Assembly: GCA_046563655.1 (NCBI GenBank)
Contig: CM102285.1
Coordinates: 8,680,001 to 8,744,000 of the forward strand
Reading direction: 5' to 3'
Origin: Yuukianura sp. NJ FZ-2021
Taxonomy: Eukaryota
Length of the DNA: 64,000 bases
Under the pieces are notes generated by a model that did not search any database, was not told where the DNA came from, and saw only the letters and a list, made by a program, of their open reading frames with translations. This document shows positions 20,259-52,700 of this stretch, piece after piece; position 1 is the stretch's first letter, and each line of letters starts with the position of its first letter. The position numbers were made by a program, and so were the translations under genes.

Positions 20259-20720
20259 ATGCCGCTTAAGGGAGTGCCGCCCATAATCAGCCCGGACTTG
20301 CTCCGTGCACTGGCGCTGATGGGCCATGGTGACAAAATTCTATTGGCAGACTGTCACTTTCCAGCGACATCTATAGCTGCCAGATCTGGAACCAACCCAA
20401 TCCTGATTCGAGCCGATGGACATGGAATTCCAGAACTGCTGAAAGCAATTCTACAGCTGATAGAACTGGACACCTATGACCCATTCCCGTTGACCTTGAT
20501 GCAGCGCGTCCCTGATGATGTTGCACGGAACCTCCAAGTCCCCGTGTGGGACACTTACAAGGACATTCTCAAGGATAACTTGAAGCCAAACCAAAACTTC
20601 CAGTATATCGAGAGGTACAGTTTTTATGACATGTCGAAGCACGCATTCGTCATTGTCCAAACTGGAGAAACTGCTCAGTATGGTAACATCATGCTTACTA
20701 ATGGACTTGTTCTGAACTGA
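20259..20720 (+). CDS. FUOM: L-fucose mutarotase (RbsD/FucU family), single coding exon
   Basis: 153-aa ORF with LKG.P..ISP.LL..L..MGHGD.I.LAD..FP, IRADG.GIPELL, LDTY, ER..FY and TGETAQYGN motifs, animal FUOM-like. Acceptor tttag lies 3 nt before the ATG, with a probable 5'UTR intron 20145-20255. AATAAA near 20817. Confidence 0.93.
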   Translation: MPLKGVPPIISPDLLRALALMGHGDKILLADCHFPATSIAARSGTNPILIRADGHGIPELLKAILQLIELDTYDPFPLTLMQRVPDDVARNLQVPVWDTYKDILKDNLKPNQNFQYIERYSFYDMSKHAFVIVQTGETAQYGNIMLTNGLVLN

Positions 20721-21604: not shown

Positions 21605-23667
21605 TCATGTAAACAATTTGACGAGTTCCTTCTTGTTCACTTTTCCTAGTTGATTTCTTGGAAGTTTATCGATTGTTTGAATTCGATTTGGACATGCGTA
21701 TCCTGGAAGACGCTTTTTGGCAATCTCCTTAAGTTCATTAAGTGACAGTTCTTTGCCACTCCACACAATCATGGCAGCAACCTTTTGACCCCAAACAGGA
21801 TCCGGAAGGCCAACGACAGAAACGTCCTGGATTTCCTCCAGTGCTAAAAGTTGTGTTTCGATTTCCAAGGCACTCAACTTGTACCCTCCACTTTTGATAA
21901 TATCGACGGATTTTCTGCCGAGGATTTTGAATCCGATTCCTTCGGTGTACTCTACGGTGTCACCTAAACGGAAATTCCAGTCACAGAGATTTCTTTAAAA
22001 AGATCAGAAGCTGTTATAAACGCGTGCAATATTTTCAAAACTGTACCTGTAATGAACCAGCCATCTTTGGTAAATTCTTTAGCAGTTGCTTCCGGATTTT
22101 TCAAGTATTCCTTGAACACGGACGGGCCTTTTATGAGTAATTCTCCTACGACTGATTTTTCTCCGCTAGCAATCTGAATGTTTTTGGCTCCACCTTCAGC
22201 AAGTATCGTCACTTGGTCCTTTACCATTTCAGCTACTCGAACTCTGACGGATTCAAAAGGGAACCCCACGTACCCTTCACACCAACAAAACCGTCAGTCA
22301 AGGTCATTTGTTGAAAGTCAAAATTAAGTTAGTACTGTTGAAGACTTACCCGGTCTGCGTTCACCGTGCAGGGGATTTGTAAGGGCCATTCCAATTTCTG
22401 TCATGCCATAACGTTCTAGAAGGCGGTGGCCTGTTATTTGTTCCCACCTTTCTAAAACTGGAACTGGTAATGACGCACTCCCGGATATCATCACTCTAAG
22501 GTATGACATTAGAGAATGAATCAAACCACGGATTTTTCACCGGTATTAGCAATTACCTCATTTTGTTGATGCAAGTCTCACGGATGAATTCTGCAGTTCG
22601 AGCGCCTTGCTTTCCATAAGTCTTGTCGTGTTCTTCAATTAATTTGGAATAAACCGTTGGGACTCCCATTATAACATTTGGTCTCTCCGATTCAGCCGAC
22701 AAAAGTTCTTTCCAAGCCTGTCCAGCATGAAATTTTTCTAGCATGTGACATCTGCAAAACATGATACAATTTAAAAGCAAAGTCTGCGTAAAGGTTATAA
22801 AACATTTCACAAATTATTACCTTCCGCCGACGAATGTTGGAGAAATCAAAGCATGAATAAGACCGTGGGTGTGGTGTAAAGGCAAAATATGAAGCATCGT
22901 ATCCTTGGACGTTATTGCCCATGCTTGACATATATTAGTAATTTGCGCAATAAGATTCTGGTGCGTTAGCAAAACACCTAGATGTCAAATTCAGAAGTTA
23001 GAACTTGCAATTTGCAAAGATTGAAGTTAATTATTATTTCCCGGACCCTCTTACCTTTAGGCAGCCCCGTAGTTCCACTCGTAAACAGCACCAGTGCGTT
23101 ATCCGAAGTGCCAAAGGATCTTCCAGGGAGTTTAGCAGGATTTGATCCCGACAAACTTTCAAAGTCGACGACATGAAGCTTCGAATTCACAGTGGCAGCA
23201 ATTTTGTTCATTCGATCGGCATATTCCTTCGTCGTAACAATGACTTTGGCTTCGGTGTGTTTTGTGAAGTACTCAAGCAAGTTTTCCGGATGTTTGTCCG
23301 ACAGGGGTACAGCAACGTTTTGGGACATCCAGCATGCCCATAGGGTTATTAAAAACGATGAATCATGAGGGCATAAAAATGCAACTTGTGATTCCGTAGT
23401 ACCCACTATGTCCTTTAGCTGTTGCGCCAGTTGTATTGATTTGCTTCCTAATTGGGAGTAGGTCCAGTTTCCATTGCGATCAGTAAACCCCACCTTGTCC
23501 TTCAAGCGCTGATCAATTGCTGACCGGAATAAAGGCAACTTGAAATCTGCGTCAATTGCTTGTGATTGTGGAATTGCTGAAACATGCAGGCTGCATCTCA
23601 GCAGAGTTTTCAACCCCAATGGGTAACGGGAGAGCAGCCGATGACTTTGGAAGATTAAAAACGTCAT
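21605..23667 (-). CDS. ACSF3: Malonyl/methylmalonyl-CoA synthetase, mitochondrial (acyl-CoA synthetase family member 3)
   Basis: Exons 23667-23055, 22977-22821, 22751-22557, 22495-22350, 22274-22047, 21963-21605. Motifs: [75 protein letters not shown]-terminus resembles a transit peptide. Confidence 0.92.
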
Positions 23668-24425
23668 TGTTTAGGCCCTGCAATACACAAAACAGCAAAT
23701 TTTCGTAAGGTGGGTAATCTACGAAATCTACAGACTAGGGAATTATCAACCTGTTTCCGTAACATGACAAAGCTTAACAATTTACTAACTTGAAAATGGA
23801 ACTTAATTGTTAATTTCTTAATTCCGTACTGTCCCGATCTACGATTGTATAGTAATCTGTAGTTGAACTTGACCTTCTTATTTGCAATTCATGGGAAGTG
23901 TAGTGTCGATTGTCGAATTTCCTAGTTGCCTGCAGTAAGTTGAGTTAACTTACTTACACTATTCAGTCCTCCTCCGATCGAATGCTTGGTTTGGTAATTA
24001 ATTACTAATAATCAGCCAATGATGGAATGGCAGCTTGCGCCGGTATTATCTTCCTTTCAGCTGATGAGTTATGAAGTAAGTAGCACTTGTCACTATCACT
24101 GCTTTGCTTGAGTGACCTTGACCTCCCACTTTAGTCCTAATTCAGGGGGAGAAGACAGAAGAGATTAATGTAAACAAACCTCTCCTCAAACTCAATTATA
24201 TGTCAAAGAAAGTCATCAGATGATCCATAAGCACATGATATTCAAGCACGCGCTTAACACATGGCTTTGAAATTGTGAGAAGTTTAGGTTGGTTCTGGAT
24301 TCACCATATGACGCACATCAACAAAACAAAAGCTTTGGTTTTTTTTCTTCTTTGTTTATATTGTTTAAGTTTTGATTACAGTTTTTGTTAATTAACAGTT
24401 TGCATAATAAAATCCTAAAGGAAAT

Positions 24426-26550: not shown

Positions 26551-29466
26551 TTAGAAGGGGAGGGTTGAGGAGAACATGGCTTCTATAACCTGCAAATTAA
26601 AAAATTTTAAAGTGAAACTCAAAAAACTAACGAAAATACTAAGCAAAGCTCTAGATTCAGTTAAAACAGAGCAGTAATTAGTTTACTTACCGGTGGGGCA
26701 GGGATGAGATCTTCTAGTTTTAGGTAAAATATTCTTTGAAGCCCTTGGACGCTCAAACTTCGGAGTTCTGGCAATTTTGCCAAAATTCGAGAAAAATAAT
26801 GTGGTTTTCGCTGGGCATCTACATTGTACGTGACATGATCTCTGAGGGAACTGATGATCTTCATCTGGATCTGTTCTACTTTTACAGGTTCTTGTAAATT
26901 ATGACGATCTAGACAACATGAAAAGAATCGTAAAAATTCAATTCAATTGATTTTGGATTGTTTTTATAGGAGGTGAATGACGGAAGCTTACCGGTGACTA
27001 AAGTGAGAGCCTCAAGGCAAGCCATCGCGGACAAATCCAGGTCAATATTGTGGAGTGAAATGCTGAATTCTGCAATTGCGTCAAACCATTCGCCAAAGAC
27101 TGGGCGACATTGCTCGCGGTGAAGGATTGTGCCGTTGCAGAAGGTTAGCGCCATATCATTTGGTTGAATTCTAAAGTTGCAACGAAAATTTTGGATTCAG
27201 TTTCGGCGTAAACTTTATGTAGGTAGTAGTAATGGAAGTATTTTGACAACGAGGCCGAGCGTTTACCTGTACGCAAGTCTGAGTATAAAAAGTTCCAGAG
27301 ATCCACTTTGGAGTAGAAGATCTTGATCATGTCGCGACAGTTCCTGGAATCCTGGAATTTTTTCTGCAAATGCTCGAATGACCTCGAAGCACGAGGTCAA
27401 GAGTCGGAAGAAATGCTCAATATGCTGAGGGTGATGGACGATTGACTCACTGTCTGTTGGATAATCTCGCTCATTGAATGGAGGTTCTTGGTACTGGAAT
27501 AATTAAGGCTTCAATCAAGCACTGTCCTTATAAGTGTCTATTCAGAGTAATCTAATTAATTTTCTTTGCATTTACCATGCTGCAGTCCTTGTTCTGTGCA
27601 TCTGGACTGCTGTCCAAGTGAGCTCGTACAAGAGCCGTGAGACATGACACTGGAGGTGACGGTGGGGCTGAACCGGCCATGCCCATGTGATCCCGTGGTT
27701 TCGAAGGCAGGCGACCTCGTCTACCTTTAAGTGAATCTGTCCGGACGACTTCTCGGACCATGCCGACCTTGAGTAAGAAAGAATTCAAAATTAAGCTGAC
27801 GAAGGCCGTGTTTGTACGAAAATTCTAATTTGTTGTTGTTTTGTAGAACACTTACTGCCAAGCATTTTTGGAATCGGCAAAACTGGCAACGATTGCGTCT
27901 TCGCTTGTCCACTGGACAATTTCGACTGGCCATACAGACATATTTCGCTCCCCTTTGTACTGTGCGTTTGAAAAATCCTTTGCAACCTTCACAAGTCACA
28001 ACCTAAGGATAGAAAAAAAAATTAAATGCAAATTGTTTTTGTTTTCAGATATTGGAATACATGATTGCAAAGCTGCACTTACCCCATAATGCTGACAAGC
28101 TGCAGTGTCGCCACAAACAGCACATAGTTTCCCACTCGTAGGAGACGATGTGCCCTGAGTATGCGCTTGTTGGCTACCAGAAGCTTCTGCTGGAGCCCTT
28201 CCAGCCGGTGATTGCGGTTTCGCCGAGGAGGACGGGGTTTCGCTTCCACTTGCCACGGAACTCGGAGAATCGCAAATGGATCGCTTTCTTGTAAATCCTT
28301 CTTGAATAGTTTCGCTTCCGGATAGAATTCTGGAAAATTCAATGAAGGTAAATTTATGATGGAAAGGTTCATCCGTGAAACAAATTTTGCAAAAATGAAA
28401 TCTCAATTTTTTGCTTTTTTAAAATTTTTACCTCATTGTTTCAGCCAAGCGAGCCGCTCGGGATGTCGAAGGTTGCTGAGACAATGGAGTTGAAGATCGG
28501 GAATCAGAACGTGCTGTATGCGGCGACGAGGTCATCATTTCGAATGGTGGTGACGGAGGATAGAAGATGGAGGAATGCGGTTGATGGGAATGGTATGACA
28601 GAGTACTACTTCCGGTGGGACTCATTTCCTCTTGACCTAGCGTCTGGTAGGCATGGAGCGGAGTTGGTGGGGCGGAGGTCGTTGAGGTCATCTGATGATG
28701 GTAGGGCGACACCGCCGATTCATCAAAGCTGAAAACATCTCTTCTGTAGCGTGGACTATAGGTTTCTTGGAAGCTGGGCAGAGGGGTAGCAGATCCAGAT
28801 CCACCCTCCTCCATGGACATGGAGCTGGCCAAGGAAGTGGAATCGAGGAGGAAGCAGGACGTGGACGCTGATGCTTCAGCGGCGGCGGGAACTGTCGAGG
28901 GTGGTTCAACTGCTGCGAAGGGTTTGCGTTCATTGCTACTGGAATTGCTATTACTGTTTTCGTCCATGAAAAGCGGATTGGCAGTGTACTGTTGAAGATG
29001 AACGCCGGGAAATGTTTGGGAGTGGGCGTAGTCGACGGGGTAGGAGGCGAAGGGCAAGCAGGGAGAATTTACGTGTCCGTTCCCAGCGACACTGGAATTG
29101 CTAAAGAGGAAATCAGTGTCTGAACTGTGCAGAACCGACTCCGCATCTACCAAGGCCTCCAGGAATCCAGGCAATTCTGCAAATCCCGACAGAGACACCT
29201 ACGAAAAGTTTCAAGAGTGTTAGCTCGTCAGTATTTGTTTGGAATGTTGTGAATGATGCTAAGATTCTATATTTTTCGAATTGAAAATCCTAAAATATTT
29301 CGCTTTGAAATAGTTGTGGGATTCGTTAGAATTTGTTGGGTGTTATTCTGTGCTTCATACTCAGGGAAGGTACAGTAAATTCAGCAATTGAAGTTAAGCT
29401 AAAAGCTACCAATGACAAGTTTTGTTGACCTAGGTCAAGGCTTACTTGGGGCTGAAGGAGAAGCAT
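26551..29466 (-). CDS. Hr38: Nuclear receptor HR38 (NR4A/Nur77 family)
   Basis: Exons 29466-29446 (MLLLQPQ), 29198-28432, 28329-28083, 28002-27856, 27767-27576, 27493-27267, 27170-26992, 26908-26691, 26589-26551. [54 protein letters not shown]4A-specific [18 protein letters not shown], and LBD ending [28 protein letters not shown]. Confidence 0.96.
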
Positions 29467-31742: not shown

Positions 31743-33208
31743 CAAGCCACTCCGGCGGCCTACATCCACCAACAGAAACAACCAGAGACACAATGTTCCA
31801 CGTGCTAAGGCCAAGTCCAAGCCATTTTCACTGCCTACTAACTAAATACTCAAAATTGATGATTATTTGGCTAAAATTTAACTAACAACTTGGTTTCAGA
31901 AACTACTTAATGTAATAGTACAAATAGTGAAAGTACTGCATGAGACGACGCCTTCTTAGATTTACATTTTTGAAAATTTTGGTAGAAGCTGCATAAAATT
32001 TATAGTCAGTTTTTGGTTTAATTGTATCTTAACTAATCTCGATCAATCCAACCTACTCAATTTGCACGGGTTAGCCCTCAACGCTTTAAATAGACGCCAC
32101 ATTCTTAAATGATTGGAGCATGATAGCTCATAACGAAGATTTTGAAGTTTAAAGAACACTTTGACTCCCAAGTTCAAAATGCAAAAGTAAATTACTGGCT
32201 TACCTGTATTGGCAGCTTTAAGATTTTGAAGGGATTTGCAACTTTGGAGAAATGTTGCACAGAGTTCTTCAAAAGTGTTCATACAGAAGGAAGATCTTCA
32301 GCCTTGTTTAGAATTTTGATTTCTACATTTGAAGAATTCCTTCAATTGAAACACCAAGTTTTTAAATTTTGGAAGTTCGTTTTCAATTTTTTATGAAATT
32401 TAAATTTAATCGTCAAAACAATTCAATTGAATTGCTGTTGTGGATTAGAATGGAATATGAAAAGCTATTCCCGTGCTCCTATGAGAATGTGATTGTTGAT
32501 GAAAATAATCAGCTAACTGCTGAATAATTAAGTTTGTATTGTTGTGGTTGGACTGTAAACTTTCTCTATTGTTATTGCTTTCTCTGCCTGTTCCTTCCTG
32601 TCTGTCCGAAGCACATGTTTGAAGTGAGTGTCTGGAAGGTAGGGAAGACAGTTTATAAACGAGGAGGCAGAATACCCGGGTAGCAGCCACTTTCTCTCCC
32701 TAGGCAGCCCGTGCTAAAGGCTGAAGAAACTAAGCCTAGCTTGCCTCTCCCAACAATTTCCTCCTGCATGTGACGTCTTTGGTTGAGTGACGTCCTGGAT
32801 ATCAAGTGCGTCATACTTTCCCTTGATAAGAACTTTCTCCGTAGCTTTCCCTGCACAATCCATATTGCATGCACAGGAGGAATTCAAGGGAATGGAAATT
32901 ATGCGGCTTAAGGCGTTGGGCACTTCGAAATGGGAAACATAACACACCCCTCCTGTGGATGAGGCATTCAGCTAACGCTTAAAAAATAGCCTTGATACAG
33001 AACCAGTGCGACCTTGTCCTTACTCCTCCACAAACTCAATTAGTAATTCACACGAAACTTTAAACTGAAAACGTTAAGAACGACAACGGTACAAAACAAT
33101 AGTCATTGTGATAGTTGTTTAAAACGATAGCTTTCAGGAATTAATTATACGGTTTTAAACCAAAGTCTAGACTCGAGCTAGGAACGATTTGAACAGCCAT
33201 TTAAACAT

Positions 33209-36200
33209 AAAATCGAATCAAAGAAAGTCGTTAATGATTAAAGCATGTAGATTTCGTAGAGTTCTTTTCCGGGTGGTATGGTTCCCAATATAGAAGTGCT
33301 GTTCCCTCGCTGAATGGCGAGACTGATGCGTTGAAATAGGAAGGAACTTGCTCGATTGTCACCAGTGGCTTCTGAGAGGCGATGTCCAATTGAATTGAGT
33401 AGACGTAACCCTTCTTCTCCGTAAACTCCAGTTGTCTCGACTGCGATGATGGAAACAAAAAATCGACAATCAAGGTCACGGTAGATGTCATGTTTTTGGA
33501 TTTCAGCTAAGGCGGCAGGATGACCACGGCATGAAGATGATGTTGGTAGGTAAGACGCGGCAAATGTATCACGACAGGTGAAATCCCACGCAAGGCATCG
33601 ACCGGACTTCCAAGGGACTAGAGTAACGCCATCCGGTCTCTTGCCGTCAGTTCTGGAACAACCGGAGGGTTCTTTGATGCAAGGGATGCCTGCTGTCCGA
33701 AGAGATCTGGAGATAATGTCGTTCACTGAAGCATGTCTTGATTGTCTGCCTGCGCTTCTGGTGCAGCTTAAGCCATGCAACCCATCACTCGAAACTGAAA
33801 CTCCGCAAGGGCAGCGATGTGGTTGACAAATTTCAGTTCCTAAGCGGACAGCACAGGATATTCGGAAGTGTTCGTCGGCTAGGAGCGTTCCCAGTGGGGA
33901 GGATGGAATAGCATGTAGCCAATCACCAGAGTGAGGGGCACAAACAGCGAGCAGACGGGCCTTGTCAGTCAGATTGGAGGAGTTTTGGACCAATTGAGAG
34001 TAAATTTGATTGAAGAGCTGCATTTCCCATCGTTTTTGAATTTTGCCGTCTATTGGTGTTTGGAACCCCATTTCGGACCAATTGAGAGAAGCGATATCCA
34101 TGGAGGCGTCAAAAGGTGACAGATGAGATGGTATAAAGGTAGAGATTAATTCGGCACAACTATTGACTGAGGCCAAAAACGAAAAAGTAGCACTGTCAAC
34201 GGCATGACGAATACCTAAACCCCCTTGATTCACCGGCAATGAAGACTGGGACCAGGCTTCTTCAGTCAAATTTGAATTGAGGATAGATTCCAATACGTTG
34301 CGTAAAGATGAGTCGTATGCTGAAAGAAGGTCAGTTTCCAGGAATGATGGAGAACATCTGAGGAAATATAATAGTCTTGGAGTTGATATTGATGCCCGAA
34401 GTAGGAAGAACGCTATATGGGCAGGAAGAGACGACAGTTTTGAGGATAGTGACTTGAAATCTTCTGTCTTCGATTTGAGAATACGTCGTGAAGAATCTCT
34501 GAAAAGAGGGGCACCCAAGAGTTCCGCTTGCTCCTTCTCAGGAAACATAAAGTCAGGATAAATTGAGTGGAAGGCGTCGGAGATCAAAGTTTTTTCTGTC
34601 GTATCAGCAGCTAGAATAATTACTTCACATTTCTTCATGTTTAGATGTAATCCAAATGAAGAGGCATTAGATTGGATCATTTTGAGATTTTCCAGTACAA
34701 TGTCAGGAGAGTCAGCGATAGTTGCGTCATCTAAGTACCATGAATTCAATTCTGTAGTTAAAGATGAGGCTAGTGGATGAACGGTTAAGGCGAAAAGCGC
34801 AGGTCCCAGTGGGTCACCTTGTTGGATGCCTAACTTTGATTTGATACAGTTGGAATGGTGGAACAGGTCTGTTTCGATGGAATAAGCTTGAGAGACGAAA
34901 TTAAAGAAATCTGGGAGATGGTATTTGACAGTTTTCAGCATCTGGTCTCTTCGGATGAGATTGAAGGCATTTCGAAAATCCATCTTCACGAGAACTTTGG
35001 GCGAGGAGTGATTGGCGTTGCAGTAGATTCTGACGGCATGGGCGACAGCTTCAGCTCCGTTCTTGACGCCGACACCTACTTGAATTGGACTCAACACGGA
35101 CGTGATAACGTTCATCGAGCGAGCAAGGATTAGTTTTGAAACAAGACGTCTCCATGTGAGGCCGATAGCAATTGGCCGTATGCCACCTTTCTTCTTCTGG
35201 ATCGCAATTAGTGAAGCACCAAAGAAAACAGGTCGGATGTCATCAGGGAGAGATCCGTTCGTGATGAGATTGCACAACTTCGAAATGGAGGACAGGAGTG
35301 CTACCCCTGCATCACCGGAGGACTTCGACGTAAGCTCTTTGAGAACCTGAGGACGAAGAGAGTCAAGGCCACCGGAAGATCCGTTTGGAAATGAAGAGAT
35401 AGATCTTAGGATGTCACAGTCTTCGAAGATGATTTCTCTCGGAGGTGGTGGATCCGGAAGGATGATAGGCAGAGGGTGATCTGGGTGTAGCTGGGTGAGG
35501 GCGTCAATAGTAGAGGAGTCATCTGGGGCGAGACAGTCGTCAGAGCAAAGAAGACGAATGGATCCACGAATGTCACCGTCGGCCAGTTTAGATTGCACTA
35601 GTTTGGAGCAATTCCAGTGTAGCGATGATGGAGCGTAACGTGGAAGGTTATGGTTTGAAGCAAGGTTGAATGAGTTTTTTGAAGAGAAGTTTGTGAAGCG
35701 GCCAACATTTTCCTTTACCCATTTGGTCAGATTCGGTTTAGATTTGTCTTCTTTTTTCGGAAGATGGAGTGCAGCATAAGGGAAGAAGAGAAGCGTTTCC
35801 CATGATTCCGAGGAGTTCTGGACAACGACTTGTTCTATGACGGCGGAGAGTGTGGATGCCACAACTTGTCTAGCTCCCTTGGGGATGTGTTTGAGAATTT
35901 GAATTGATTTTTTCAAAAGTGCGAGTCGTGAGCCAATGGTAAGATCTGCAGATGATGATTCAGCAGTGGGGTCCGAAAATGCAATTCCAAGATACGATTG
36001 TTCAATGTGTTTCCGTCCGCTCGCCCTTGTTTTGGTGATGTTTGGAAATATCTTCAAAAGTTTTGAACCCATGGTTGTGTCAGCTAGTGGTTTGATATGA
36101 ATTGATGCACAAAAGCGTTGGTATTTGTCTTTAAATTCCTGCTTCTTCATCAAACCATTGGAGACAAGGCGAATATTGTTAGAGATCCAGTCGTCACTTA

Positions 36201-36875
36201 GTTTGGAAATTTCAGATTTGCTTAGAGGCTCGGAAGAAGTACGATTGGAGAACGTCTGAAGTCTGCGTGAATCGTCAATTCCCAGTCCGCAGTCATCTGA
36301 TGATGACCCGACTCGGGGAATCTCCACGATTGGCGTGTCAATAATCGATGTTTCTGGGTCGTTTTGAAGGACATTGGGATCAGACGAACAGTCAAAAGTA
36401 AAGTTGGTTTGAGAGTTTTCTTGAAAGTTCGGATGAATGTTTGAATTGAGGCTTTCCATTCTCTCACTTGTTGTTGTCAAGGTAATGTGAATGATAATTG
36501 TGAATTCGGAATTTTTCGATGAAAAATTAGTGAAAGCCCAATGTTGTCCAGGAGATAAGCAATTGATGAATTGTTTGTTTGAGTTATGATGTGTTGGAGA
36601 GCGAATTTTGGAGTCAGAATTTCAGGACTTTGGATGACGAAAGTGGGCCAGTTGACAAGTGTCCGGTTGTAAAATGCATGTAGAAGCACATCAAAGGATG
36701 CGCGACAATGAGATGAACAATCTGATATAAAAATGATGGACTTTTGCACTAAATTCACTCAAAAAACAATCAAAAACTCGGGAGCGACTTTTTGCGTGTC
36801 GCCAAAAAAGATGACTTTTAAAGTGTTTGATTATTTTTTAACAAAAAAAAAAAAATAAAAAAAAAAAATCGAATC
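33209..36875 (-). mobile_element. Apparently full-length non-LTR retrotransposon, RLE-type (CRE-clade-like), including its target-site duplications
   Basis: Single uninterrupted ORF. Direct repeat AAAATCGAATC at 33209-33219 and 36865-36875. A13-T-A tract at 36843-36864. Visibly more GC-rich than the flanks. Confidence 0.88.
33238..36480 (-). CDS. Retrotransposon polyprotein: winged-helix (RFX-like) + reverse transcriptase + CCHC knuckle + PD-(D/E)xK restriction-like endonuclease
   Basis: 1080-aa intronless ORF (track start is TTG; first ATG at 36459). RT motifs GSSGGLDSLRP, KKKGGIRPIAIG, DFRNAFN, GIQQGDPLGPALF and WYLDD. Then CPCG..HGLSC, RHASVND, KRPDG.TLVPW..G..LAWD, and FQRISLAIQRGN, typical of CRE-like elements. 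Confidence 0.93.
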   Translation of the reverse strand: MTTTSERMESLNSNIHPNFQENSQTNFTFDCSSDPNVLQNDPETSIIDTPIVEIPRVGSSSDDCGLGIDDSRRLQTFSNRTSSEPLSKSEISKLSDDWISNNIRLVSNGLMKKQEFKDKYQRFCASIHIKPLADTTMGSKLLKIFPNITKTRASGRKHIEQSYLGIAFSDPTAESSSADLTIGSRLALLKKSIQILKHIPKGARQVVASTLSAVIEQVVVQNSSESWETLLFFPYAALHLPKKEDKSKPNLTKWVKENVGRFTNFSSKNSFNLASNHNLPRYAPSSLHWNCSKLVQSKLADGDIRGSIRLLCSDDCLAPDDSSTIDALTQLHPDHPLPIILPDPPPPREIIFEDCDILRSISSFPNGSSGGLDSLRPQVLKELTSKSSGDAGVALLSSISKLCNLITNGSLPDDIRPVFFGASLIAIQKKKGGIRPIAIGLTWRRLVSKLILARSMNVITSVLSPIQVGVGVKNGAEAVAHAVRIYCNANHSSPKVLVKMDFRNAFNLIRRDQMLKTVKYHLPDFFNFVSQAYSIETDLFHHSNCIKSKLGIQQGDPLGPALFALTVHPLASSLTTELNSWYLDDATIADSPDIVLENLKMIQSNASSFGLHLNMKKCEVIILAADTTEKTLISDAFHSIYPDFMFPEKEQAELLGAPLFRDSSRRILKSKTEDFKSLSSKLSSLPAHIAFFLLRASISTPRLLYFLRCSPSFLETDLLSAYDSSLRNVLESILNSNLTEEAWSQSSLPVNQGGLGIRHAVDSATFSFLASVNSCAELISTFIPSHLSPFDASMDIASLNWSEMGFQTPIDGKIQKRWEMQLFNQIYSQLVQNSSNLTDKARLLAVCAPHSGDWLHAIPSSPLGTLLADEHFRISCAVRLGTEICQPHRCPCGVSVSSDGLHGLSCTRSAGRQSRHASVNDIISRSLRTAGIPCIKEPSGCSRTDGKRPDGVTLVPWKSGRCLAWDFTCRDTFAASYLPTSSSCRGHPAALAEIQKHDIYRDLDCRFFVSIIAVETTGVYGEEGLRLLNSIGHRLSEATGDNRASSFLFQRISLAIQRGNSTSILGTIPPGKELYEIYML

Positions 36876-38501
36876 TGTCGTGGTATACTTGGGTGCAGAG
36901 AAATGAAAAATAAAAATCAGAAAAATCTGAAGAGACAAATTCACTGCCCAAGGTAAGGGCGAAAGAAAGGCGTGTACAGAAGCCCAATTAAATGCTGCTA
37001 CACTTTCACACTCAGCCTTTGCAAAATTTCATAACTATAATACAAATTTTCACTGGAATGTTCAAAGTGAACACTACTTTCACAGTGTAATACTATTATA
37101 AAACAGCGAACTGAATGACAGGTTGAGAAAAATATATAGAAAAAAAGTGAAAGTTCGAAACTGAAATCTATTCAAAAACTAAACCAAAATTACTCACATT
37201 AGTTATGGTTTCATTTGGAAGAACATTTTCAAATTCCTGTCGCCTTTTACAATAAGCGATTGTAGCCATTTTTTGAACCTTTGTGTTACCAACTTAATTT
37301 AGTGGTCTTGAACATATGGACTAGGACTAGTGTAGTCTCAAAAGAAAATGTTTGGAAATAAATTTTGAAAAACTTAAATGAATTTTTGAAAATCGGAAAC
37401 AAAACAGACTTGAAAACCGACAACATTGTAAATGTAATGTAAACGTAACCTAACTTTCAAAAATGTTGCAGCGAGTGCACCGAACTTTCTCCGCCTGAGG
37501 CTTCTGACTATGCGAGGCACAAGAGGACTTGAAGTTCCCTAGACTTTCTTTTCAAATGTATTTCTACTTATTGTGATTAATTAATTTCTACATTGCTGCA
37601 GCTTCAGAATTTAGGCTTTGTGAATGAAACCTGTCTACGTCACGGGTTCTGCCCGACGTCACCCCTTCCATGAGGCTTTAACTTGCCACGCAGCTTTCTC
37701 CAGCAAACTTCCTTCCTTTCATCAATGAATATCTTTGTCGATAGTGCGTTCGTCGGGAACGGAAGAGAAAGTATGTCAGGGTAGAAATTGAGCCATTTCC
37801 TTACGCATGTTTCCCTAACTTCGTACGCACTTACTGTGATACTTTTTCCATCAATGACGCTCGCTTTCTCCAGCTTAAAATTCTATTTTGGAACTGTTGT
37901 TCCATGTTATGTTCCTTAGAAAAAAGGCGTCTAAAGAAAGCATTCCTGCAACTACTTTCTGCCCAATCAATTCTGACGTAGAACTTTCTCAACCAAGCAT
38001 TGTGTTTGACATTCCCTTGAATGCTAAATGTTTATTTCCCAATTGAATTTCCAATTCAAACAGTGACGACTGACTGCTTTATTTGGAGAGTCGATACAAA
38101 CAACCCACTTATTGGTAAACACGTCGGAAGACCGACGACATTTCTTGTGTACTTTTGTTTATTATTAAACTTCCATTCATTTCATGTTTCGTTTCTTACT
38201 AAAAATATTGATTTCTTTTGTTGAGTCTATTACCGTAAAAAGGGGTTGGGCTACAAAAGAATACAAAAGTAAAGTTTTAAAAATATTATATTAATTAGAA
38301 AAAGAAGTAAAGCACTAAATACTACTACTGCGGAGGGGAATGAATGGACGAAGCTTACTCTAAAACTTCGCGCGTACATTTGACTGTTTCTTCAGTTGCA
38401 TTTTAAAAAAGTCTAAAGGGGCGGGGTAGTTAATAAAATTCCAGTGGAAATAAATACACTAGCTTGGCATTTATGAGGTAAAAAGTTAAAAAAAGAGTCT
38501 G

Positions 38502-41500
38502 TTAGGAATTGTTATTGTTCCGGCGATGCATGTCATGTCCATGCGGAGGTGGCGGAGGGGGGCCTAAATCCGGGTCACGCTGATTCGGATCTAACCATGC
38601 AGAACGTCGACTTGGTTGAATCACGTATAATTCATCTTCATCATTAACGAATCCCTGAAAAATGAAGACATTTCGAGCATGAAATTATGAAAATTTTCCA
38701 TTTTTGATTTGAAAAATTTCAACAGCGACAATTTTACCTGATTAGTAAAGTCAATATTTGTGACTTTAGGTTTAGGAGCCTTTCCTCTGGTACGTGACTG
38801 AACTGAGGTCACGGGTGCATGCTGTCCATTCCCTACACCAGGAGGAGGGGGACCCTTGAGGGTCTCCATTTGTGACTTTTTACGTTCAGCATGAGAAGTT
38901 CTACGTTCCAGTACATTACTACGACGTTCCTTCAAGGCTTGGAAGGTCACTTGAAAATTATCACCACCAAAAAGTCTTGCTTGTTTGTCCGGGGCTGGAA
39001 ATAGAACAAAGTGTGCCGTTGTTCATTAAAATTTGCCAAAAATAAGTTCATTCATAGTTGTTCTTTCATAACCACACTTACAATTGAGTATTTCTTTGAA
39101 TCGACGCTCAAATGCCACGTCCAGCGTCCCAACTTGCTTTCTCGCGTTCTTCTGTTTCTCAAGAGCGTGAATTGTTTTCCTTCGAGCAACGTCACCAGGT
39201 ACAATGTGCCGCCCATTGTCACTGTCACCTGTTGCCAAACAAATGGAAATGTCACATTAGGAACACAAACAAAAACTACGACGTAGAAATGAAAGTGCTT
39301 TCTATCATTCTCTTAAGGTCATTCATACATTAGCAAAAGCTTACCATCAAAGTTCTTCAGCTTTTGGAATCTACGTATGAGTCGTACTCCATCACGATCC
39401 ACTGCAGCATCGGTTGTGGTTATAACATCAGCTTCTTTTCCAAAGCTTGTTACTTCGGTTGCAGCAAGGATATGCGACAGTGTTCCAAAACGATGAAACA
39501 GCATAGCCATAAACTGAATGATAAGAATGAGGGCAAAGAATCCAACGAAAACTAAACCAATTGGTTCCAATTGCAAATATTCCTTGGTAATATAAAGCTA
39601 GAAACAGAAAAACAGCAATCAAATTCGCTTCTTCACCAATGTACTTTAGTAATTCTAAAAAATTTCACTTTACATCGCCATTGTCCGTGAGTGTCACGTT
39701 AGTCTTGATTCCAAATGGCCACTTGATGTGTAGCTGCTCTTTGTTCAATTGCATCAAAAACACTATAATTATGAAGATGGCATTGATCATCATGAAGAAG
39801 AACACGGAACGGTCACGGAGTTCGCGCAGTCCTTGAGCAATTACAGCCTGTTAGGATACAACAAATGGCGAGAGCAGGACACATACAAGAAAAATAAACA
39901 ACAACAACACATTAGATGCACAATAAAGCCAGAGTGTTAATAGTTTAATTGAAACATTTTGCTTACCTCTTTCTTAGCATCAGCGTTAATTGGTGCTAAA
40001 TACTTTTCAATCAGATCCTTCCAGAACGTAATTTCAGTTCCGTTGAGAAAATCAACCACCCCTCCTTTCAAGTCCTTATCGTTAATCCAGAACGGATTTA
40101 TCAAATCGTTTCGATCATTCCGTGTTTCAGATGAAGAACTTCCAGCGTCCTCATCCTCATCTTTGTGTTCCACTTCTCCAGACTTGTGGTCAGTTACGGC
40201 AGTACCGGAGTGGTCCGCACCACGCGGTGACATAAGCATAGACGGAACTGCTGTCGATTTCTTTCTTCCTGCGACAGGCATGTCCAACGTTCTGAAAACA
40301 CGGAAAGAGGACTTTACAAATCTATTCCAAACAATACTGTTGATCGTCATTACTTTTCAATTGAATCCAAGCGACTTCCAACTTCAGACAAAGAGTCTGC
40401 GATACGAAGTAGCTGCTGACGTTCATCAATAGTTTTGGGTTGAGTACAGCACATGATTTTGAATAGTCCAGCAAATGAAAACTCCAGTGACCCCTCAGTG
40501 TCATCCGCATTCTTCCCAGGAAGGAATCCTAGAAAACCGCCTTTCTTGGCATTCTTCTTCGCTTCCTCCGCCTTTTTCTTTTCAGCTTCCAGTTCCTGTT
40601 TCAAAAAATACCGTTAACTGCATTGCTGTCACTATTTTGTGATTTGATTATGATTTGTGTGTATTGCAGAACTTGATATGAGAATATTTATGTCGTACCT
40701 GCTTAGATTTTTTGGTAGCCACTTCTCGAGTACCCCAAGAGACGACATTGAGATTGATGAGAGAGTAAATAATCAAAAGCAAGTACATGGACGGAATTAG
40801 CAGCAAGTACAGCAATCCAGGAACGATGCACCAGAATTCTTGCGGATGAAGTAGCGCTGCTATAAAGAACGATCCGGATAACGATATCAAGAAAATGGCC
40901 GAAGGTGAACCGATCCCGTCCTCTCCCAACTGCAAAGCGGTACCAACCAGGACGGCCATCATAACCAGTGCGTAACCCGTCGACAGTATTTGAGCCACCA
41001 GCAGCTATAAAAACAATGCGTGAATTAGTACAAAAATTCCACCTACAACATTGTTGACAAAACAGGAAATGTACTTGAAAGTTGGACTTGAAGCAGAAGC
41101 AGACGATGATGAAGATTGAAATGGGAATGATATTCCAGTAAAAGCTGGTCCAATTGTCAATTCGAAATGCAGCCACGAACGCACCCACCAACATAAGAAA
41201 AATAGTTCCTGGACCCAGGATCGTTCCACCCATCAACATGATTTGGTACATGATATAGGGCATAGAAATGTCCGGATTGACTTTGATTGTCCTCTTATAG
41301 TCCATCAACAGATCCATGATGTTGGCCATTGTAGATGGAACCCATCGACGACGCTGATTATAAAATTCGTTGAATCCCTCTGGGCAGTGCGTTTTGGCGT
41401 CACTTGCAGCTGAATATTCGACACGGTAACCTCGTTGAAGCAGTAAAGTACACAACCAACGATCTTCGCCCTGATCGTATTGAACGTAGTGTCGTGGTTC

Positions 41501-44500
41501 GTCAGATCGAGTTGTGTATTTGGCCATGACGTTGTCGTCCATCAGGGCTTTTCCACGGAAAAGAGAGAAGCATCCGGGAGAACAAAGTACGCAACCAATC
41601 ATGTGCTCGGTGGCTTTTTGGAGCCAATGACCAATGGCGTATTCGAACATTTGATACCACATCATAGGCCCTGAGAAAAGAAAAAATACAAAATTAAGCT
41701 GAAATTCTAACTTGTGACAATCAAAATTAGGTTCTCTCTTACCGCTTCCAATCGGATGAATTCGTCCGCAAGCAGCTCCGAGATTCTTGTTTTTCTTCAT
41801 TAAATCTACAAGGAGTTCGACAGCATTTGGATGAAAGTCAATGTCACCGTCAAGTGTCAGCAAGTAAGTGTTTTCTGCGATCGTTTCCTTCCTAGAAACT
41901 GGAATGCTCAACTCCATAAGCCGATGTCCCAGAAGGTAGTACATGTACATCACTTGACTCCATCTCTTTCTGTGACGGATCTTGTCCTTATCCTTCAAGT
42001 GGGCAATCATCTTTGTTTTCCCAGGCAAAATCCATTCTAGGCGACCACCGTACGGAGTCGGAATTTTCTTCGGCGGACGAATACGAACTTGCGTTTCATG
42101 GACACGGCAAGCAGCTTCCTCAATGATTTCCACCATTAATTTGACAAAGGGATTCACAATAACTGGTGAGTTTTCTTCTCCTTCATCTCTCAGTTCAAAT
42201 GCATCATCAAAAAAGATGTGAGCTACAAAATGTAAATTAAAAATTAATTTGTTATTCGAATCCTCATGTAATTTGTTTGGCACTTACTCTCAAATTCGTA
42301 ATATCCAGGATCCACTACTGCAAAATACTTAAGAGCCACCCGTCGAGCACATTGATCTTCATCCATGCGAAAAATACTTTTGAGCATTTCCATCATTTCA
42401 TCCTTCGTTTCGTGCCACATTGTGGCGCAGGCGTAAATCCTTGGAATCGTATCAGTCTTGAATTTATTTTCAGTTGAGCCCTTGTGTGACGACGTGTCAA
42501 TGGATCGAATTTCTTCATAATCCGTATCCGCTGCTTCCTGTTCCACCTCATCCGTTCGAATGTCATTGTCATCTTCTCGCTTTCGGTTGAGTGCCAATGA
42601 CTGATCAATCAGCATGGCGTTGTACATGGGAGTAACGAAAAGGCGTTCGGTACTGGCCAAACGCTCGCATTTTGGAGTCCAAATATGGAGGGCTATCCAG
42701 GTCTGAGAAAGCAGCCACAACAACCATATCCAACCATACTAAAAAAAATGAAAATTCAACAGTTAATCCAATGAAATTGAAAAATATAAGTTTAAATTGA
42801 GCATGTCAAAGCTAACCTCTTTGCCAATGAATCCAGAAATGAATTCTCCTTTGGGGCATGACCAAAAGATGTACTGCGGAAGATGTGCTTCCCAAAAGCA
42901 AGGACTTTCAGATCGTAGACCGCAGAGGGAGATTAGCAGAGACAAGGTGACCGGAACGGCTAAACTCACTGGGAAGGCAAAACTGAATCCTTGGATGCAA
43001 ATCTTACAAGCGAATTTTCCAAAGATGTAGCAAATGTACGCCGCCAGAATTTGGATAAACAGGGTATGTCGAACAGCAGTTGGAAAAGAGTTTTCATGGA
43101 TAATTTCTTCCAGAAAACCTTGACCCGGAATGTCTGGCGACGTTCCAGCACCAAATATTGAACGGACCTGCGCCAAAAAGTGTTATGTTTAATCAAACCC
43201 AGTGCATAGAACTAGAATGCTGGAAAACTTTGTTACCTCTGTAATATTGATAGGATGGGTTGAAAACGAAGATGTGAAGTGGCTAAAAGTATTTCCCGTG
43301 CTGTATCCAAGGAGCCAGACGGAAAACATCATCGAAACGAAAAATACAAGCATTTTCCACAGAGAAATGAAAACGTAGGTGAAATAACGCGTTTGAATAA
43401 GAACTTTGCGCATATCTCCAAGTTTGCGAATAAAGCCATAAGGTGAAGAACTGTCTACAAAGTTTTCCCACCAACCGCACGATATGAGAAATGCGGAAAC
43501 GGGAAGTAACCATCCACGACCTTTGGGTTCTGTCAAAATTGGCCACAGAAATAAACCTGACACTTGGAAAAGAATTGCCAAAGTGTCAATTGAGCACTGG
43601 ATGATCCACTTCCCTCGGCCATCTTTGTTTGGATGGCGACTCAGCATTCCTATAGATAAAATCACCATGAAATGACGCAGAGCTCGAACTTTAAAACGTT
43701 TGAGCAACTGTCTATCGTTTTTCTTACCAAAAATAGCTGGAACTAGACAGACGCAGTTAGTGAGCATGATTCCTTTGACTACATCGACAGACGGAAGAAC
43801 AGCGAACACGAATAGTGCGAGCCCAACTACATGGCAAGTCTAGAAATACCGTAACAATATTAGTATAACCCTTGGCGCGTATTTTCAAATTGAAAAAGAT
43901 ATGAACGCCTATGATTTATAAAAATACCTCAAAGAAGAAGGGAATGAAGAATTGCAGGGTCGAAGGTCGGCGACAGGACTTGAAAACGCAAATTCGGAGA
44001 GCTCTGATGAAACTCCCTACTTCGGGTACCATAAATGCAAACATAATGGCCCATGTCCAAGAGACTCTCTCCACCTCTGAGATAGACGCTTCAAAGGTTT
44101 TGTCTCGACCTAAAACAGAGATCATTTGTTCAGCATCAATACAAAACAGAAACAATGGATTAGATTTATTAGGGGCAGGCTTCTGCTTAACACTTTAGAC
44201 AACTTCTGTAAAAAGATATTCATCAGGAATTGACCAATTGACGTCTGAGGCTCCATAAATCTTACCATACTTCCTATTGCAAATAGGAACTTTTCGTTGT
44301 GGTTCCAACTGGGAGGTCATGAGAAGGAGACTTGCCTTGGCAAAGACTGCCCCACCCAAAACGACCAGAAAAGTGACAATGTAGGCCAGGATCTGGAACA
44401 ATGGTAAAAATCAAGGATACAGTCACATGTCACAATTAGCAAATGAGTGTTTAGTCTAAGGTCACATCGTGTCCGATTGTTAAAAAAGTGATTTACTTTG

Positions 44501-48300: not shown

Positions 48301-49723
48301 GTAAATACTAAAGGGAAACAGAAATCATGACGCATCAATTCTAGTCTAAAATCTACGGGCTAACAACCTCTCTCGTCTTCCAGGAACACTCTAAATTGCA
48401 CAATGCAGTCCAACAACTTTTTTTTTTGTAAAAATTTAGTCCAAAACACTCCAAAAAAACATTCATCACTCAGAAGGTGTCAAAATTATACAAAGTGCTC
48501 TTTATCACTCCGAAAGATTCAACAACATTACGTCTACCTTGGCATAAGGTACGCACAAATTCCACGTGGAGTCACTTACTAAGCAAGGATTGTTTTGCAA
48601 AATTTTCAGTTCTAAGGTACAAAAGGCTTCTACATAGACAATGGAAGAAATATTACAGGAGTCAATCTTTTTTTTTTGCAAAGGTCGAAACCTAGCATTA
48701 GCAAGGTCACGTCACGTTCATTCACATATAAGACTACCAGTTTAGTACGGATCATTTACAAGCTGCTTTACATTTGACTTTACAGACGAAAAATAAGTTT
48801 GAATTGAAGCAAAATTGTAATAAGGTTTGATTGAATGCCAAGAAGAGGAAGATTTTCCGCGTACCAGTTAGTGCTTACAAGTTCATTGAATAAGAATTTA
48901 AGGCATGAATTCCTTCTGAGGGCGTTGGTTATAAAAATTACGGCCTTGAGAAAAGAGATCAAGCACTTGCACTGACAGTATTGAAAGAAAAATCTTTACT
49001 TCTCGATCCATACTGCGGTTTAAAAAAAACGTAACTGTTAATCATTGCAAAATCAAAAGTGAGGAAGCAGACACTGAAAGTAAGTTAAGTTAAAGTAAGA
49101 AGGCAATTAAGGTTAATCGTCAATTACCTTTTGTACTGGATGTTTCTCTCAAACTTGCTCCAGGCACGCCAAAATTAAATACTGGTTTGTTCGAAATTTA
49201 GAAAAGAGACAGAAGAGAGCTAACTTTCAAGATGTGATCACAATCAAATGCTTTCCATTCGTCCGAAACAAAATCCATAAGATCCATCACAAGAGTTTAG
49301 CATTTGACATCTTTCTCTTTTTAAAGTTTTAGAACAAATTCAAATTCAATCAAATCCAACAAGTACTAAATTGAAAATCTGTCATCGAAGCGTTTCAGAT
49401 GCCCCAAGACCAGGACGAGCGGCAGACATACTGAAAAATACGCGACAGGCACGCTGCAAAGAGATTTCTCACTTTCGCATAAATCTAACAACAAAATTCA
49501 TCTTCTTCCACAACGAGATCAACAGCCAAAAAAGTAAAGTAATCAAAAACGTTGAAATAATAGAAATGAAAGAATGCATTTTCCTTACAATCAACAGCCG
49601 TTCGTGTATCCGTTCATGTTTCATGTAAACTCCATATTTTTCTCAACCAAACAGTCATACATACGGTTTTATTAGGATTGATGAAGGAGATAGATAACAT
49701 TTATACTTCTACGATTTTTGTTT

Positions 49724-52700
49724 TTATACCTTATCGCCTCCAGCGTTGGTGTTCGGATTCTTCAACTTTCGAAACTCCTTTGTCGCCCACATGGCAAGCA
49801 TTTTAGTCTTGTTGGCTTTCGAGCGTCGTCCCAGCGTCAACAGCTCGTTTATGATTTCATTGTCCACAAGAGGTAAGATCCGTGTCCCATATCCCAGAAT
49901 GAGATCACTGGAAGTCAACAAAAATCCACATTTGTATACATTGGAAATGTAAGTTATGAAGACAGTAATGGCTGAAAACTTACCCAACGAGTCCTGCGCA
50001 GGCCGCAACGTTTCCATCACTTCGCTCAGGGTCTTTCCCAATTTCACAAATGAATTGAAATATATACGGTAGGTGCGACTCAATCTGAGCCAGCTCGAGT
50101 GTCACTGGGCCATTAGGTACTCCAGACCCTGCTTGAGTGTCTCCACGTAACCCTTGAATAATTCCAGTGTAAGCTTCAAGGACTCCTTCACGAAGTTCGC
50201 AAAGGTAGTCCAACATTTCATAGTCGTTCTGCAAAAACGAAAGTTGCGTCAGGATGACATAAGGGTTAAGAACAACGAAATACAAATGAAACAGCGTGTT
50301 ACCCTGTCAACTTGGGCCTGAGATGCTTGCATCAATGTTTGCAGTACGACGTCCAAGTACTGCCGAAATTCGGGCCCAATAGCCAGCGCCACATCTCCCA
50401 AGACAGACAAAATCTGAGGCTTCACTTCTCGCTGAACTTGTTGATGCTGAAACGGAAACAACACAACCGTTTCAGGTTAAGCGTAGTATCCTAGTATTCT
50501 AAAACGCGACTAATCTCTTTTACAAGATTTTCAGTATGAAATTGGTGGTTTCATTGGTTATCGTCATTCTTTTTCAAGAGTAGCAAATAAAAATTCATCA
50601 TGAAAAGCACTCCTTGCTTACTCGCCTGATATCTTTTAAGTTTTACTGTAAAAACTTACGGATAAGTTTTGCAGTAGGTGATTCATGATGTCAGGACAAT
50701 AAGGCGCCACCTTGGAACCCAACGCTCTGCAAATATCTCCGCTGAGTCCTACTGCTGCCGAGCAGACCTGTAATTTTGAATTATGTAATTGTTAGAATTT
50801 TACTATGCTTATGTTTCATGTAACGTTGTCGAGGCGTTGGTACTTACAGAGTGCTCGCTAATATTCTGAAGGGCCGCGATCAGATACGGTATAAATGAAT
50901 CCATATATTTTAAAAATCCGTCACCCATCACTTCAGTCAATGTTGAAATAGCCATTAGGGCATCTTCCTGTACACCGCCAGATTTTCCTCCAGGACCACT
51001 GAGCATTTGAAGTAAGGCTTCCATAACTGCGTCCGAGATTTGAGGAGCATCCGCAGGAGTAACTAAATCAGAAATAAGAAGTGAAGTTGAGTAATAAAAT
51101 TTACATTATTAATAATTATTATTAATAATGTAAACGTCAAAACTACGACAATCACACCTTTGCGGAGCACACTTTGGAGTGTAGCACAGAGGGAGCTTTG
51201 GAGTTCGTTGAATTGACTTCTATCTCCTGGATTGTGATGAGACTCCATCAGCAGAACTGCTCTAAGTCTCTCTAAAATCACTAGTGTAGTATTCTGTACA
51301 GTATCGTAACAATCCTTTGGTGAATTCTTGATCATCTCCATTAGAGCTTCATATGCCGCTGGACGCAAATTGGCCTAAATTAATAACGAAAAAGTCTGAC
51401 CTAAAGCACTGATGCCAATAAAAGTTAAATCATGTGTAAGTCCAAGTCCACTCACCGTTGCCCCATCAACTCTGTCAGTCGTAGCCAAAAGCTTTTCCAC
51501 AATAGGTCTGAAGAAGCCGGAAAGGCAGTAGGTTTCAGGTTCCTTAGAGTCGTCGTGTCTTTGCTCAGCAGCTTGCTCGTAAGCGGCTTCAGCTAGGCTA
51601 CTGAGGGCCCAACAAGCATTGGCAGCGACACGGGCTTCACCGATGAGTCCCCTGACGAGAGCATCAAGAAGGGGATGTAAGTAGGCAGGAGACAATGCCG
51701 CATCGGAGACAACCTCACAAATTCTGCCAAGAGTCCACGCCGTTGTGTCCCTCACGACCACGCTTTCGTCTTTCATAAGTTCAATCAGAGTCGGCATCGC
51801 GGCTTCTGCAATTGGCTTCATTGTGCCTGGATCAGGACCTGTTACTCAATTCATGCAAACGATTAAAACATTACAAAAGGCAACTCGGTTTCAGGATGAT
51901 TACTGAGTTGAAGCAATTAAATCAGGGGTGAAATTGGTGGTTTCAATTTTTTGTCGTCATTCTCTTTCAAGAGTAGCAAATAAAGTCATCATATACGCAC
52001 TGAAATTAGTAAATCGAATTCTACATGTGTCTCACTCACCTTCCATGATACAACCGAAGGACATAACCGCAGCATCTCTGTATTTCCAATCCGGATTTGT
52101 AATATTTTGTTGAACGAAGGGCATGACGTGAGGAATGATATCAGTTTCACAGCAATTAGCAAACAGCATAAGACAAACACCGGCGGCTTTACAAGGCTTC
52201 CAATCATCATCGTCATCATGTGGATCCTATTTAGAAAAAGAATGGGATTAGAAACAGAACATCAACTCCCATATTTGAATTAGTATTTTAATAATAATTT
52301 CTCTGGAATTGGGATGCATTCTTTACTTGTTTCGTCAAAGCATCAATGAGGAGAGGAACTAAATATTGGAGTGCGCCCTTCGCATAAAATCTGGAAGTAC
52401 GCTGTGGAGGACGTCCCATCTCCTGAGCCTCAGAAGCCTCAATCGCCAGATCGACTTCTTCATCACAAACATTGGACCAAAACTCAATTCCTTGCAGCGC
52501 CACTTCATCTTCATCAGATTTCATTGCTGCCATTGTAATGGCAAACAACGCTTGATTCATATAAAACTCCATGTGCTGGTAGTATAGGGTCATGATTTTG
52601 ACTAAACACTGTAACGCTGCCACCTGAACTTGAATGTCGGGAACCTGTGTTGCCTCACAAACAACTTGCATGATGTAGTGGCGTTCGGTCTGTGGAGGTT

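Follow-up and report, generated by a model that had tools for sequence, protein, structure and literature searches.

Between positions 33209 and 36875 of the window analysed here, a 64-kb stretch of genomic DNA from Yuukianura sp. NJ FZ-2021 (64,000 nucleotides; GenBank assembly GCA_046563655.1, contig CM102285.1, positions 8,680,001 to 8,744,000 of the forward strand), lies a 3.65-kb insert that we assign, from the domains it encodes, to the long interspersed nuclear elements (LINEs). The insert is bracketed by an 11-bp target-site duplication (TSD), AAAATCGAATC, with copies at 33209–33219 and 36865–36875. Between these copies the plus strand holds, in order, an 18-nt stub of the 3' untranslated region (3'UTR; 33220–33237, minus strand) that adjoins the left TSD copy without a tail; an intact open reading frame (ORF), P0001, of 1073 amino acids including the stop codon (33238–36459, minus strand); a 383-nt leader, or 5'UTR (36460–36842, minus strand), which is antisense on the plus strand; and an A13TA8 tract (36843–36864, plus strand), the longest A/T tract in the window, which runs directly into the AAAA of the right-hand TSD copy. 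A first-pass annotation made from the letters alone had already described the bracketing duplication, this order of parts and the A13TA8 tract, all of which stand; its estimate of about 360 nt for the leader was too short. Along the coding strand the element opens with T8AT13, and after the stop codon a further 18 nt bring it to a tail-less end, again as had been described. Because the tail and the repeat share AAAA, so that the first four A residues are not separable, the duplication measures 7–11 bp and the tail 22–26 nt.

The possibility that the 11-mer match is coincidental, raised in the first-pass annotation itself, was checked against a null of the same geometry, in which control positions were paired at the spacing of the insert with a 60-nt target zone. 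An 11-mer recurred by chance at 2 of 52,888 control positions, and at none of the 825 that start with AAAA; AAAATCGAATC itself has just two occurrences when both strands of the window are searched, namely the two that bracket the insert. The duplication is not a product of chance.

At the junctions, the minus strand reads ...GATTTT/ATG on the tail side and the plus strand reads ...GAATC/TGTCG on the body side, such that a T-rich nick site of the TTTT/A type is present on the tail side and absent from the body side. A single TSD pair thus encloses an A tail that adjoins the 3' TSD copy and lies on the strand opposite the element body. The A13TA8 tract resembles the A-rich tail of a relative described below (L009), and we infer that it is a poly(A) tail whose copying began at the ...TTTT 3'-OH of the minus strand. 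The copy sits in unique sequence, outside any microsatellite, and has no tail at its sense 3' end; blastn and tblastn over the window found only the element itself and no second copy.

A site-specific snRNA, rRNA or tRNA target was rejected on the basis of Rfam and tRNA scans: Rfam gave no hit at gathering thresholds over the whole window, and the four hits over 33100–37000 at E values up to 10 all fell far under the cut-offs. The leader matched no Rfam family, and neither the window element nor six relatives gave a hit to an HDV-like or any other Rfam ribozyme family. No X-box or half-site lies within ~300 nt of the insertion. A similarity between the bases preceding the A tract and 48418–48456 (E 0.056) was dropped, since 26% of shuffles score equally and other A-tract flanks look alike.

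The encoded protein carries a reverse transcriptase (RT) domain at residues 420–649 (34513–35202, minus strand; Pfam RVT_1, E 3e-19), which is found in all 27 aligned relatives, followed at approximately residues 883–965 by a CCHC motif and a PD...D restriction-like endonuclease (RLE; 33565–33813, minus strand) recognised by a profile match to R2 structures. The family profile aligns with structures of R2 proteins (9nl3_A, 9dou_A) over a span that begins at the RT and takes in the CCHC/RLE region (E 1.2e-22); in the family alignment C883, H895, C899, D943 and D959 are invariant, C885 is almost invariant, and all invariant columns are present in P0001. The best PDB matches of the ORF are R2 and L1 ORF2 proteins, and a Pfam scan of the ORF returned neither an apurinic/apyrimidinic endonuclease (APE) domain nor a zinc-finger or Myb domain. 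Because RT, CCHC and PD...D nuclease occur together with the conserved Cys, His and Asp residues, the element reads as a single-ORF LINE with an RLE, and its sequence places it in the R2 supergroup (R2, R4/Dong, NeSL/Utopia, HERO, CRE). We found 154 homologues of the ORF at E values up to 1e-3, with a top identity of 52%; several, at 42–48% identity, belong to the springtail Folsomia candida. The ORF terminates at the residues where all relatives compared do, which indicates that the ORF is complete at its C-terminus; an upstream in-frame extension was dropped, as it has no counterpart in the relatives' N-termini. A protein atlas search for a family name returned RVT_1 clusters only, all under 0.9.

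At the N-terminus, residues 90–160 match an RFX-type winged-helix DNA-binding domain (35980–36192, minus strand; Pfam PF02257, E 4.3e-06), with a score of 27.7 bits that is barely over the cut-off of 27. The domain is detected in 10 of the 27 aligned relatives, with a best E value of 2.6e-22, and RFX5 in the PDB matches the N-terminal region of the ORF (E 1.1e-05). The N-terminal DNA-binding module of the window LINE is an RFX winged helix, where R2 has a zinc finger/Myb module, and the literature searched contained no description of an RLE LINE with an N-terminal RFX domain. N-terminal modules are swapped between close relatives on a common RT-RLE core, with a PHD in 5 of the 27 relatives and a UCH protease, an OTU protease, a SAP domain and ankyrin repeats in one each; one Folsomia copy carries the automatic name 'RFX-like transcription factor daf-19'.

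We compared the ends of the insert with those of 53 related loci (L001–L053), obtained from one contig scan in records titled as bacterial metagenome-assembled genomes (MAGs) and 23–47% identical; ends were read from near-identical pairs, from one clean TSD (L009), or directly downstream of the stop codon. A 3' tail, either poly(A) or a triplet repeat, is present at the sense 3' end in seven of the nine relatives with readable 3' ends, in line with the first-pass claim that the geometry of the window copy is non-canonical. Four end in A runs (L008, with a 27-nt UTR and A22; L024, 23 nt and A31; L016, 48 nt and A12; L009, 68 nt and an A-rich tail closing in A23), three in triplet repeats (L001, 179 nt and (TAA)n; L005, 218 nt and (ATA)n; L010, 180 nt and (ATT)n), and two, L026 and L027 of a single family, are tail-less with a 31–33-nt UTR. 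The 18-nt 3'UTR of the window copy compares with 23–218 nt in these nine relatives, four of which have short UTRs of 23–33 nt. L009 lies in unique DNA and has a 12-bp TSD that opens with AA right after the tail, the same layout as on the plus strand of the window; among the other full-length relatives it alone gave a clean TSD pair, and L004 showed no definable ends.

Most relatives are flanked by (TA)n, (TAA)n or (TTA)n, and their first-strand nick contexts are A/T-only ((TA)n, (TAA)n, AATT/G). L001, L005, L008, L010, L016 and L024 combine a microsatellite target with a 3' tail of repeats or A residues; the window copy does not. Poly(T) is found at none of the six readable 5' junctions (L009, L010, L024, L025, L041 and L043), and a T run of at least nine occurs within 1.5 kb upstream of the ORF at one of 19 loci (L005), so that the 5' T tract is not a family trait. 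A FastTree phylogeny of 27 rows places the window protein, with good support, in the branch of the RFX-bearing proteins. Of the loci whose ends are known, this branch contains L001 and L005, both with (TAA)n-type tails; L026, which has no tail and is of one family with L027, belongs to the other major branch. Since relatives are normally tailed at the sense 3' end, the window copy is an exception in its clade.

Several of these loci showed further peculiarities. L001–L053 are eukaryotic LINE loci in records titled bacterial or archaeal MAGs, some on contigs of 0.4–2.5 Mb, and the bins that hold them evidently contain eukaryotic DNA. The 5' junction of L009 (3494–3515) includes 10 additional nt that partially repeat the 12-bp target duplication, an irregularity of the kind reported for R2-like elements. 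Upstream of the ORF in L005 (200–520) lie two tandem units of ~170 nt, in each of which a strong hairpin comes after a T run (T8, T19); the units may be 5'UTR monomers and gave no Rfam ribozyme match. Two same-family copies, L024 (~5905–6060) and L008 (6404–6480), are placed tail to tail in one (TA)n microsatellite in the order A31, (TA)n, T21, inverted 3'UTR, which looks like two independent hits rather than an inversion. L001 ends in (TAA)n (6778–6825), and the 95%-identical, 5'-truncated L010 (3960–3993, 5806–5945) has (TTA)n/(ATT)n on both sides; because the repeat flanks of the two differ, this family enters the repeat in either orientation. Finally, L012 contains 2.1-kb arms (1–2104 versus 3497–5603), 99.8% identical and head to head around a 1.4-kb spacer, with a third partial start at 6136, representing either an assembly fold-back or a real inverted copy pair.

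Twin priming of L1 elements was reportedly described by Ostertag and Kazazian in 2001. In its classical form, as summarised in PMC2837659, both target 3'-OH ends prime on one RNA, which leaves an inverted 5' part within one TSD pair. The first-pass annotation had proposed two integration routes for the window copy and called either of them unusual, a judgement that does not hold, as the same layout occurs in 39 PCR-verified primate L1 insertions, in which poly(T) lies between the 5' TSD and a sense L1 that has no 3' tail (Meyer et al. 2010, Mob DNA 1:7, PMC2837659). In that set the poly(T) tracts are 14–39 bp long (mean 23) with 3.6% non-T bases, the TSDs are 7–20 bp, the TTTT/A site lies on the poly(T) side, and the inserts comprise 61–2399 bp of L1, all truncated and none full length; the second priming is usually near the RNA 3' end (PMC2837659). 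Meyer et al. explained these insertions by twin priming that left very little or no non-inverted sequence: the first cDNA, started on the tail, did not get beyond the poly(A), the body was copied by a second cDNA for which the opposite target strand supplied the primer, and "dual priming" on two RNAs was an indistinguishable alternative (PMC2837659). Slippage, untemplated addition and terminal transferase were rejected because the tracts that they yield are too short, and a cryptic antisense promoter was deemed possible and unsupported, no source loci having been found (PMC2837659).

For the window copy we favour the same explanation, giving it about an even chance of being correct: the insert would be a polyadenylated RLE-type LINE, copied recently and at full length, that integrated by a twin (or dual) priming variant of target-primed reverse transcription (TPRT), a mechanism that was not among the models of the first-pass annotation. 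Starting from the observed duplication, A tract, intact ORF, RLE-LINE domains and canonical tails of the relatives, the minus strand would be nicked at ...GATTTT/ATG, and its TTTT 3' end would anneal to the poly(A) of the RNA and prime a first cDNA that ends while still in the tail, or after a few bases more. The plus strand would then be nicked 11 bp away, after ...GAATC, and this second 3'-OH would anneal inside the same or a second RNA at a point 18 nt past the stop codon, from which cDNA would run ~3.6 kb to the RNA 5' end. Joining and filling in of both cDNAs would give, on the plus strand, TSD, inverted body, poly(A) and TSD, and on the coding strand a T tract at the 5' end and a 3' end that is truncated and has no tail. 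Both priming events, and the order in which we place them, are reconstructed from this product.

Twin priming accommodates several features of the locus. The 3' tails usual in the clade, the L009 layout and the lack of poly(T) at the relatives' 5' junctions speak for it, as does the agreement with the L1 set of Meyer et al. The TTTT/A site fits the A/T-only nick contexts of the relatives, and GAATC/TGTCG does not. Because second priming in L1 is usually close to the RNA 3' end, a break 18 nt past the stop codon would no longer be coincidental, and because four of nine relatives have 3'UTRs of 23–33 nt, priming at that point can lie very near the tail. The intact ORF would follow from the copying of the element's own coding RNA. 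As a speculative refinement, the bases at 36829–36842 (plus strand), immediately left of the A tract, might be a 14-nt non-inverted remnant of the 3'UTR: they open with GATT, which could pair with the ...GAATC primer, a match that has no statistical support, and the native 3'UTR would in that case be ~32 nt.

Other points weigh against twin priming. This is a single locus in one genome, seen in one assembly window where an assembly error is possible, and its 3' end is judged from relatives in other genomes. No recognisable non-inverted body segment is present in the insert, and the nearest relatives with known ends, L001 and L005, have (TAA)n-type tails and 179–218-nt UTRs rather than pure poly(A). 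Twin priming has been reported for the APE-type L1, and in the literature searched a single R2 paper links it with RLE elements, in passing. In the R2 model given there, the second strand is cleaved once first-strand synthesis is over, and the primate set contains no full-length element at all (PMC2837659).

An alternative that we consider unlikely, though not far-fetched, is the first of the two models in the first-pass annotation, in which a polyadenylated antisense transcript of a source copy, for example from a downstream host or cryptic promoter, was copied in trans at the TTTT/A nick by the element's own or another LINE's machinery. Polyadenylation would have occurred close to the element's 5' end, and the RNA would have begun 18 nt beyond the stop codon. 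With its TTTT/A site and the succession of TSD, body, A tail and TSD, the plus strand does bear all the hallmarks of a processed retrocopy. TTTAAA and AAAAAG, which we take to be weak poly(A)-signal variants, lie 20–35 nt before the tract, and AATAAA lies inside it; however, no canonical poly(A) signal precedes the tract. The antisense route further requires trans-mobilisation of a non-coding RNA whose 5' end, original or truncated, must fall only 18 nt beyond an intact 3.2-kb ORF. Meyer et al. listed such a route as possible and disfavoured it, as source loci were not found for the L1 cases (PMC2837659). Distinctly unlikely, in our assessment, is ordinary sense TPRT of a tail-less RNA with the T tract in its 5' leader, either native or transduced from the upstream flank of the parent; here the 3' end would reflect a natively very short 3'UTR or internal priming by ...GAATC, and the 5' junction a microhomology between the tract and the target's TTTT. 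In the wider clade, L026 and L027 do have tail-less 3'UTRs of 31–33 nt, a T19 lies within the repeated 5' unit of L005, and read-through transcription with capture of 5' flank has been proposed for the cockroach element BLAG (PMC7650587). Yet L026 and L027 belong to the other major branch of the tree, seven of nine relatives have 3' tails, GAATC/TGTCG is unlike the relatives' A/T-only nick contexts, and it would be by chance that the window's longest A/T tract lies at the junction on the same side as TTTT/A.

The second model of the first-pass annotation appears highly improbable. In it, sense RNA was copied, the cDNA 3' end received a ~22-nt untemplated A tail, which no evidence requires, and the TTTT of the target primed the second strand, which would amount to a distinct integration route. 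The geometry is compatible with this, and LINE reverse transcriptases do add untemplated bases and jump templates (PMC6895275). However, known additions are of a few bases, and Meyer et al. rejected such addition for tracts of ~23 nt (PMC2837659); the model also leaves the missing 3' tail unexplained, and none of the six readable 5' junctions among the relatives has a T tract. We are very doubtful of a bolder idea, that a 5' T tract and a tail-less 3' end mark the regular route of the RFX-bearing subfamily, or, more mildly, that RLE LINEs can cut the second strand and prime from it before the first is finished. The former, if true, would mean that a T-rich target 3'-OH routinely primes on A-tailed cDNA or an antisense template; the latter would run contrary to the ordered R2 model and would have yielded a full-length, coding-competent inverted copy here. 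An artefact, be it an assembly error or boundaries lying elsewhere with a chance 11-mer match, has a next to negligible probability: a single assembly window was seen, and 11–13-mers do recur by chance within 6 kb, but the match falls exactly at two independently defined points, 18 nt beyond the end of the ORF and at the end of the A tract, the same-geometry null gave 2 in 52,888, and the ORF is uninterrupted.

If twin priming is the correct explanation, the window copy is a candidate case of this side reaction in an RLE-type LINE, at full length, and cleavage of the second target strand, and priming from it, can precede the copying of most of the RNA. This bears on the order of second-strand cleavage and synthesis in RLE LINEs, and a confirmed case would be mildly informative, given that the R2 model has the second strand cleaved once the first has been synthesised. 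For annotation, a 5' poly(T) together with a missing 3' tail is a warning sign that marks an inverted-tail insertion. The copy produced in this manner retains an intact ORF, and the sequence for its own 3' recognition and polyadenylation is probably gone; apart from its layout, the element is an ordinary young LINE copy.

The gene content of the surrounding window identifies it as springtail DNA. The exon block of a chitin synthase gene at 40703–42283 encodes protein with 86% identity to Allacma fusca and 84% to Orchesella cincta, and host gene pieces across the window correspond to an RbsD/FucU-family protein (20256–20720), an AMP-binding enzyme (22978–23670), chitin synthase (40703–43839), importin-beta (51375–53700) and a BRK-domain, CHD-like protein (58728–60889); the insert itself lies between unassigned ORFs at 28428–29198 and 39953–40432. 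ARAGORN called a 94-nt 'tRNA-Pyl' with a CTA anticodon at 1283–1376 (minus strand), the sole tRNA call in the window; Rfam places no tRNA there, and the call is probably false in animal DNA. The 12-mer ATTCTTCAATCT at 56129, which follows AATAAA and A9 (56120–56128), recurs 3.4 kb upstream at 52741, a recurrence that we judge to be chance because the interval holds minus-strand importin-beta exons.

Among known RLE-type LINEs, R2 (structures 9nl3, 9dou and 8gh6) shares with the window element the order of RT, CCHC and PD-(D/E)XK RLE. It differs in its 28S rDNA target and its zinc-finger/Myb N-terminus, neither of which the window element has, while the window copy has an 11-bp TSD and polyadenylated relatives. 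As a single sequence, the window ORF matches R2 weakly and in the RT only (E 1.2e-06); this, the absence of any rRNA or other Rfam family from the window and the absence of a zinc finger or Myb domain from the ORF indicate that it is not R2 proper. NeSL/Utopia elements, which PMC4640811 describes as inserting in spliced-leader or U2 snRNA genes and carrying N-terminal zinc fingers, were rejected, with no snRNA hit in the window and no zinc-finger hit in the ORF. BLAG of Blattella germanica, an R2-like element without site specificity, resembles the window element in its length of 3.2–3.7 kb, its single ORF of ~1000 amino acids and its dispersed insertion; it has N-terminal CCHH fingers, a 'Blag' motif and 132–241-nt 3'UTRs (PMC7650587). 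Identity with BLAG was rejected, as fingers, motif and a 3'UTR of this length are all unseen in the window element.

The R4/Dong clade combines RT and REL-endonuclease with rDNA or microsatellite targets, Dong inserting in (TAA)n (PMC7998251). Like its members, the window element has a single ORF with an RT and a C-terminal RLE, and its relatives, tailed with triplet repeats or poly(A), are found in (TAA)n, (TTA)n and (TA)n repeats, so that their behaviour resembles that of R4/Dong, a likeness drawn from descriptions of the clade rather than from reference sequences. In contrast, the window copy lies outside a microsatellite, and its N-terminus carries an RFX domain rather than the divergent Myb/SANT described for R4/Dong in PMC7998251.

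In the literature searched, twin priming is discussed for L1, and RLE elements appear in connection with it only in a passing remark of one R2 paper. Classical twin priming leaves a clear non-inverted 3' body segment beside the tail, whereas the window insert has at most a few such bases. The inverted-tail L1 set agrees with the insert in each anatomical feature, with the same succession of 5' TSD, poly(T) of ~23 nt, sense element without a 3' tail and 3' TSD; the window tract is 22–26 nt with one interruption, the TSD is 7–11 bp, TTTT/A lies on the poly(T) side, and the body apparently stops short of the tail. The two differ in that the L1 insertions are APE-type, primate and truncated, and were verified at 39 loci, whereas the window copy is RLE-type, from a springtail, full length and with an intact ORF, and is a single locus without an empty allele. 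The layout in the window is not a new integration route, since it was already known from human L1, where it was explained as a side product of twin priming; what is new is its setting, in a full-length, coding-competent copy of an RLE-type LINE in a springtail host.

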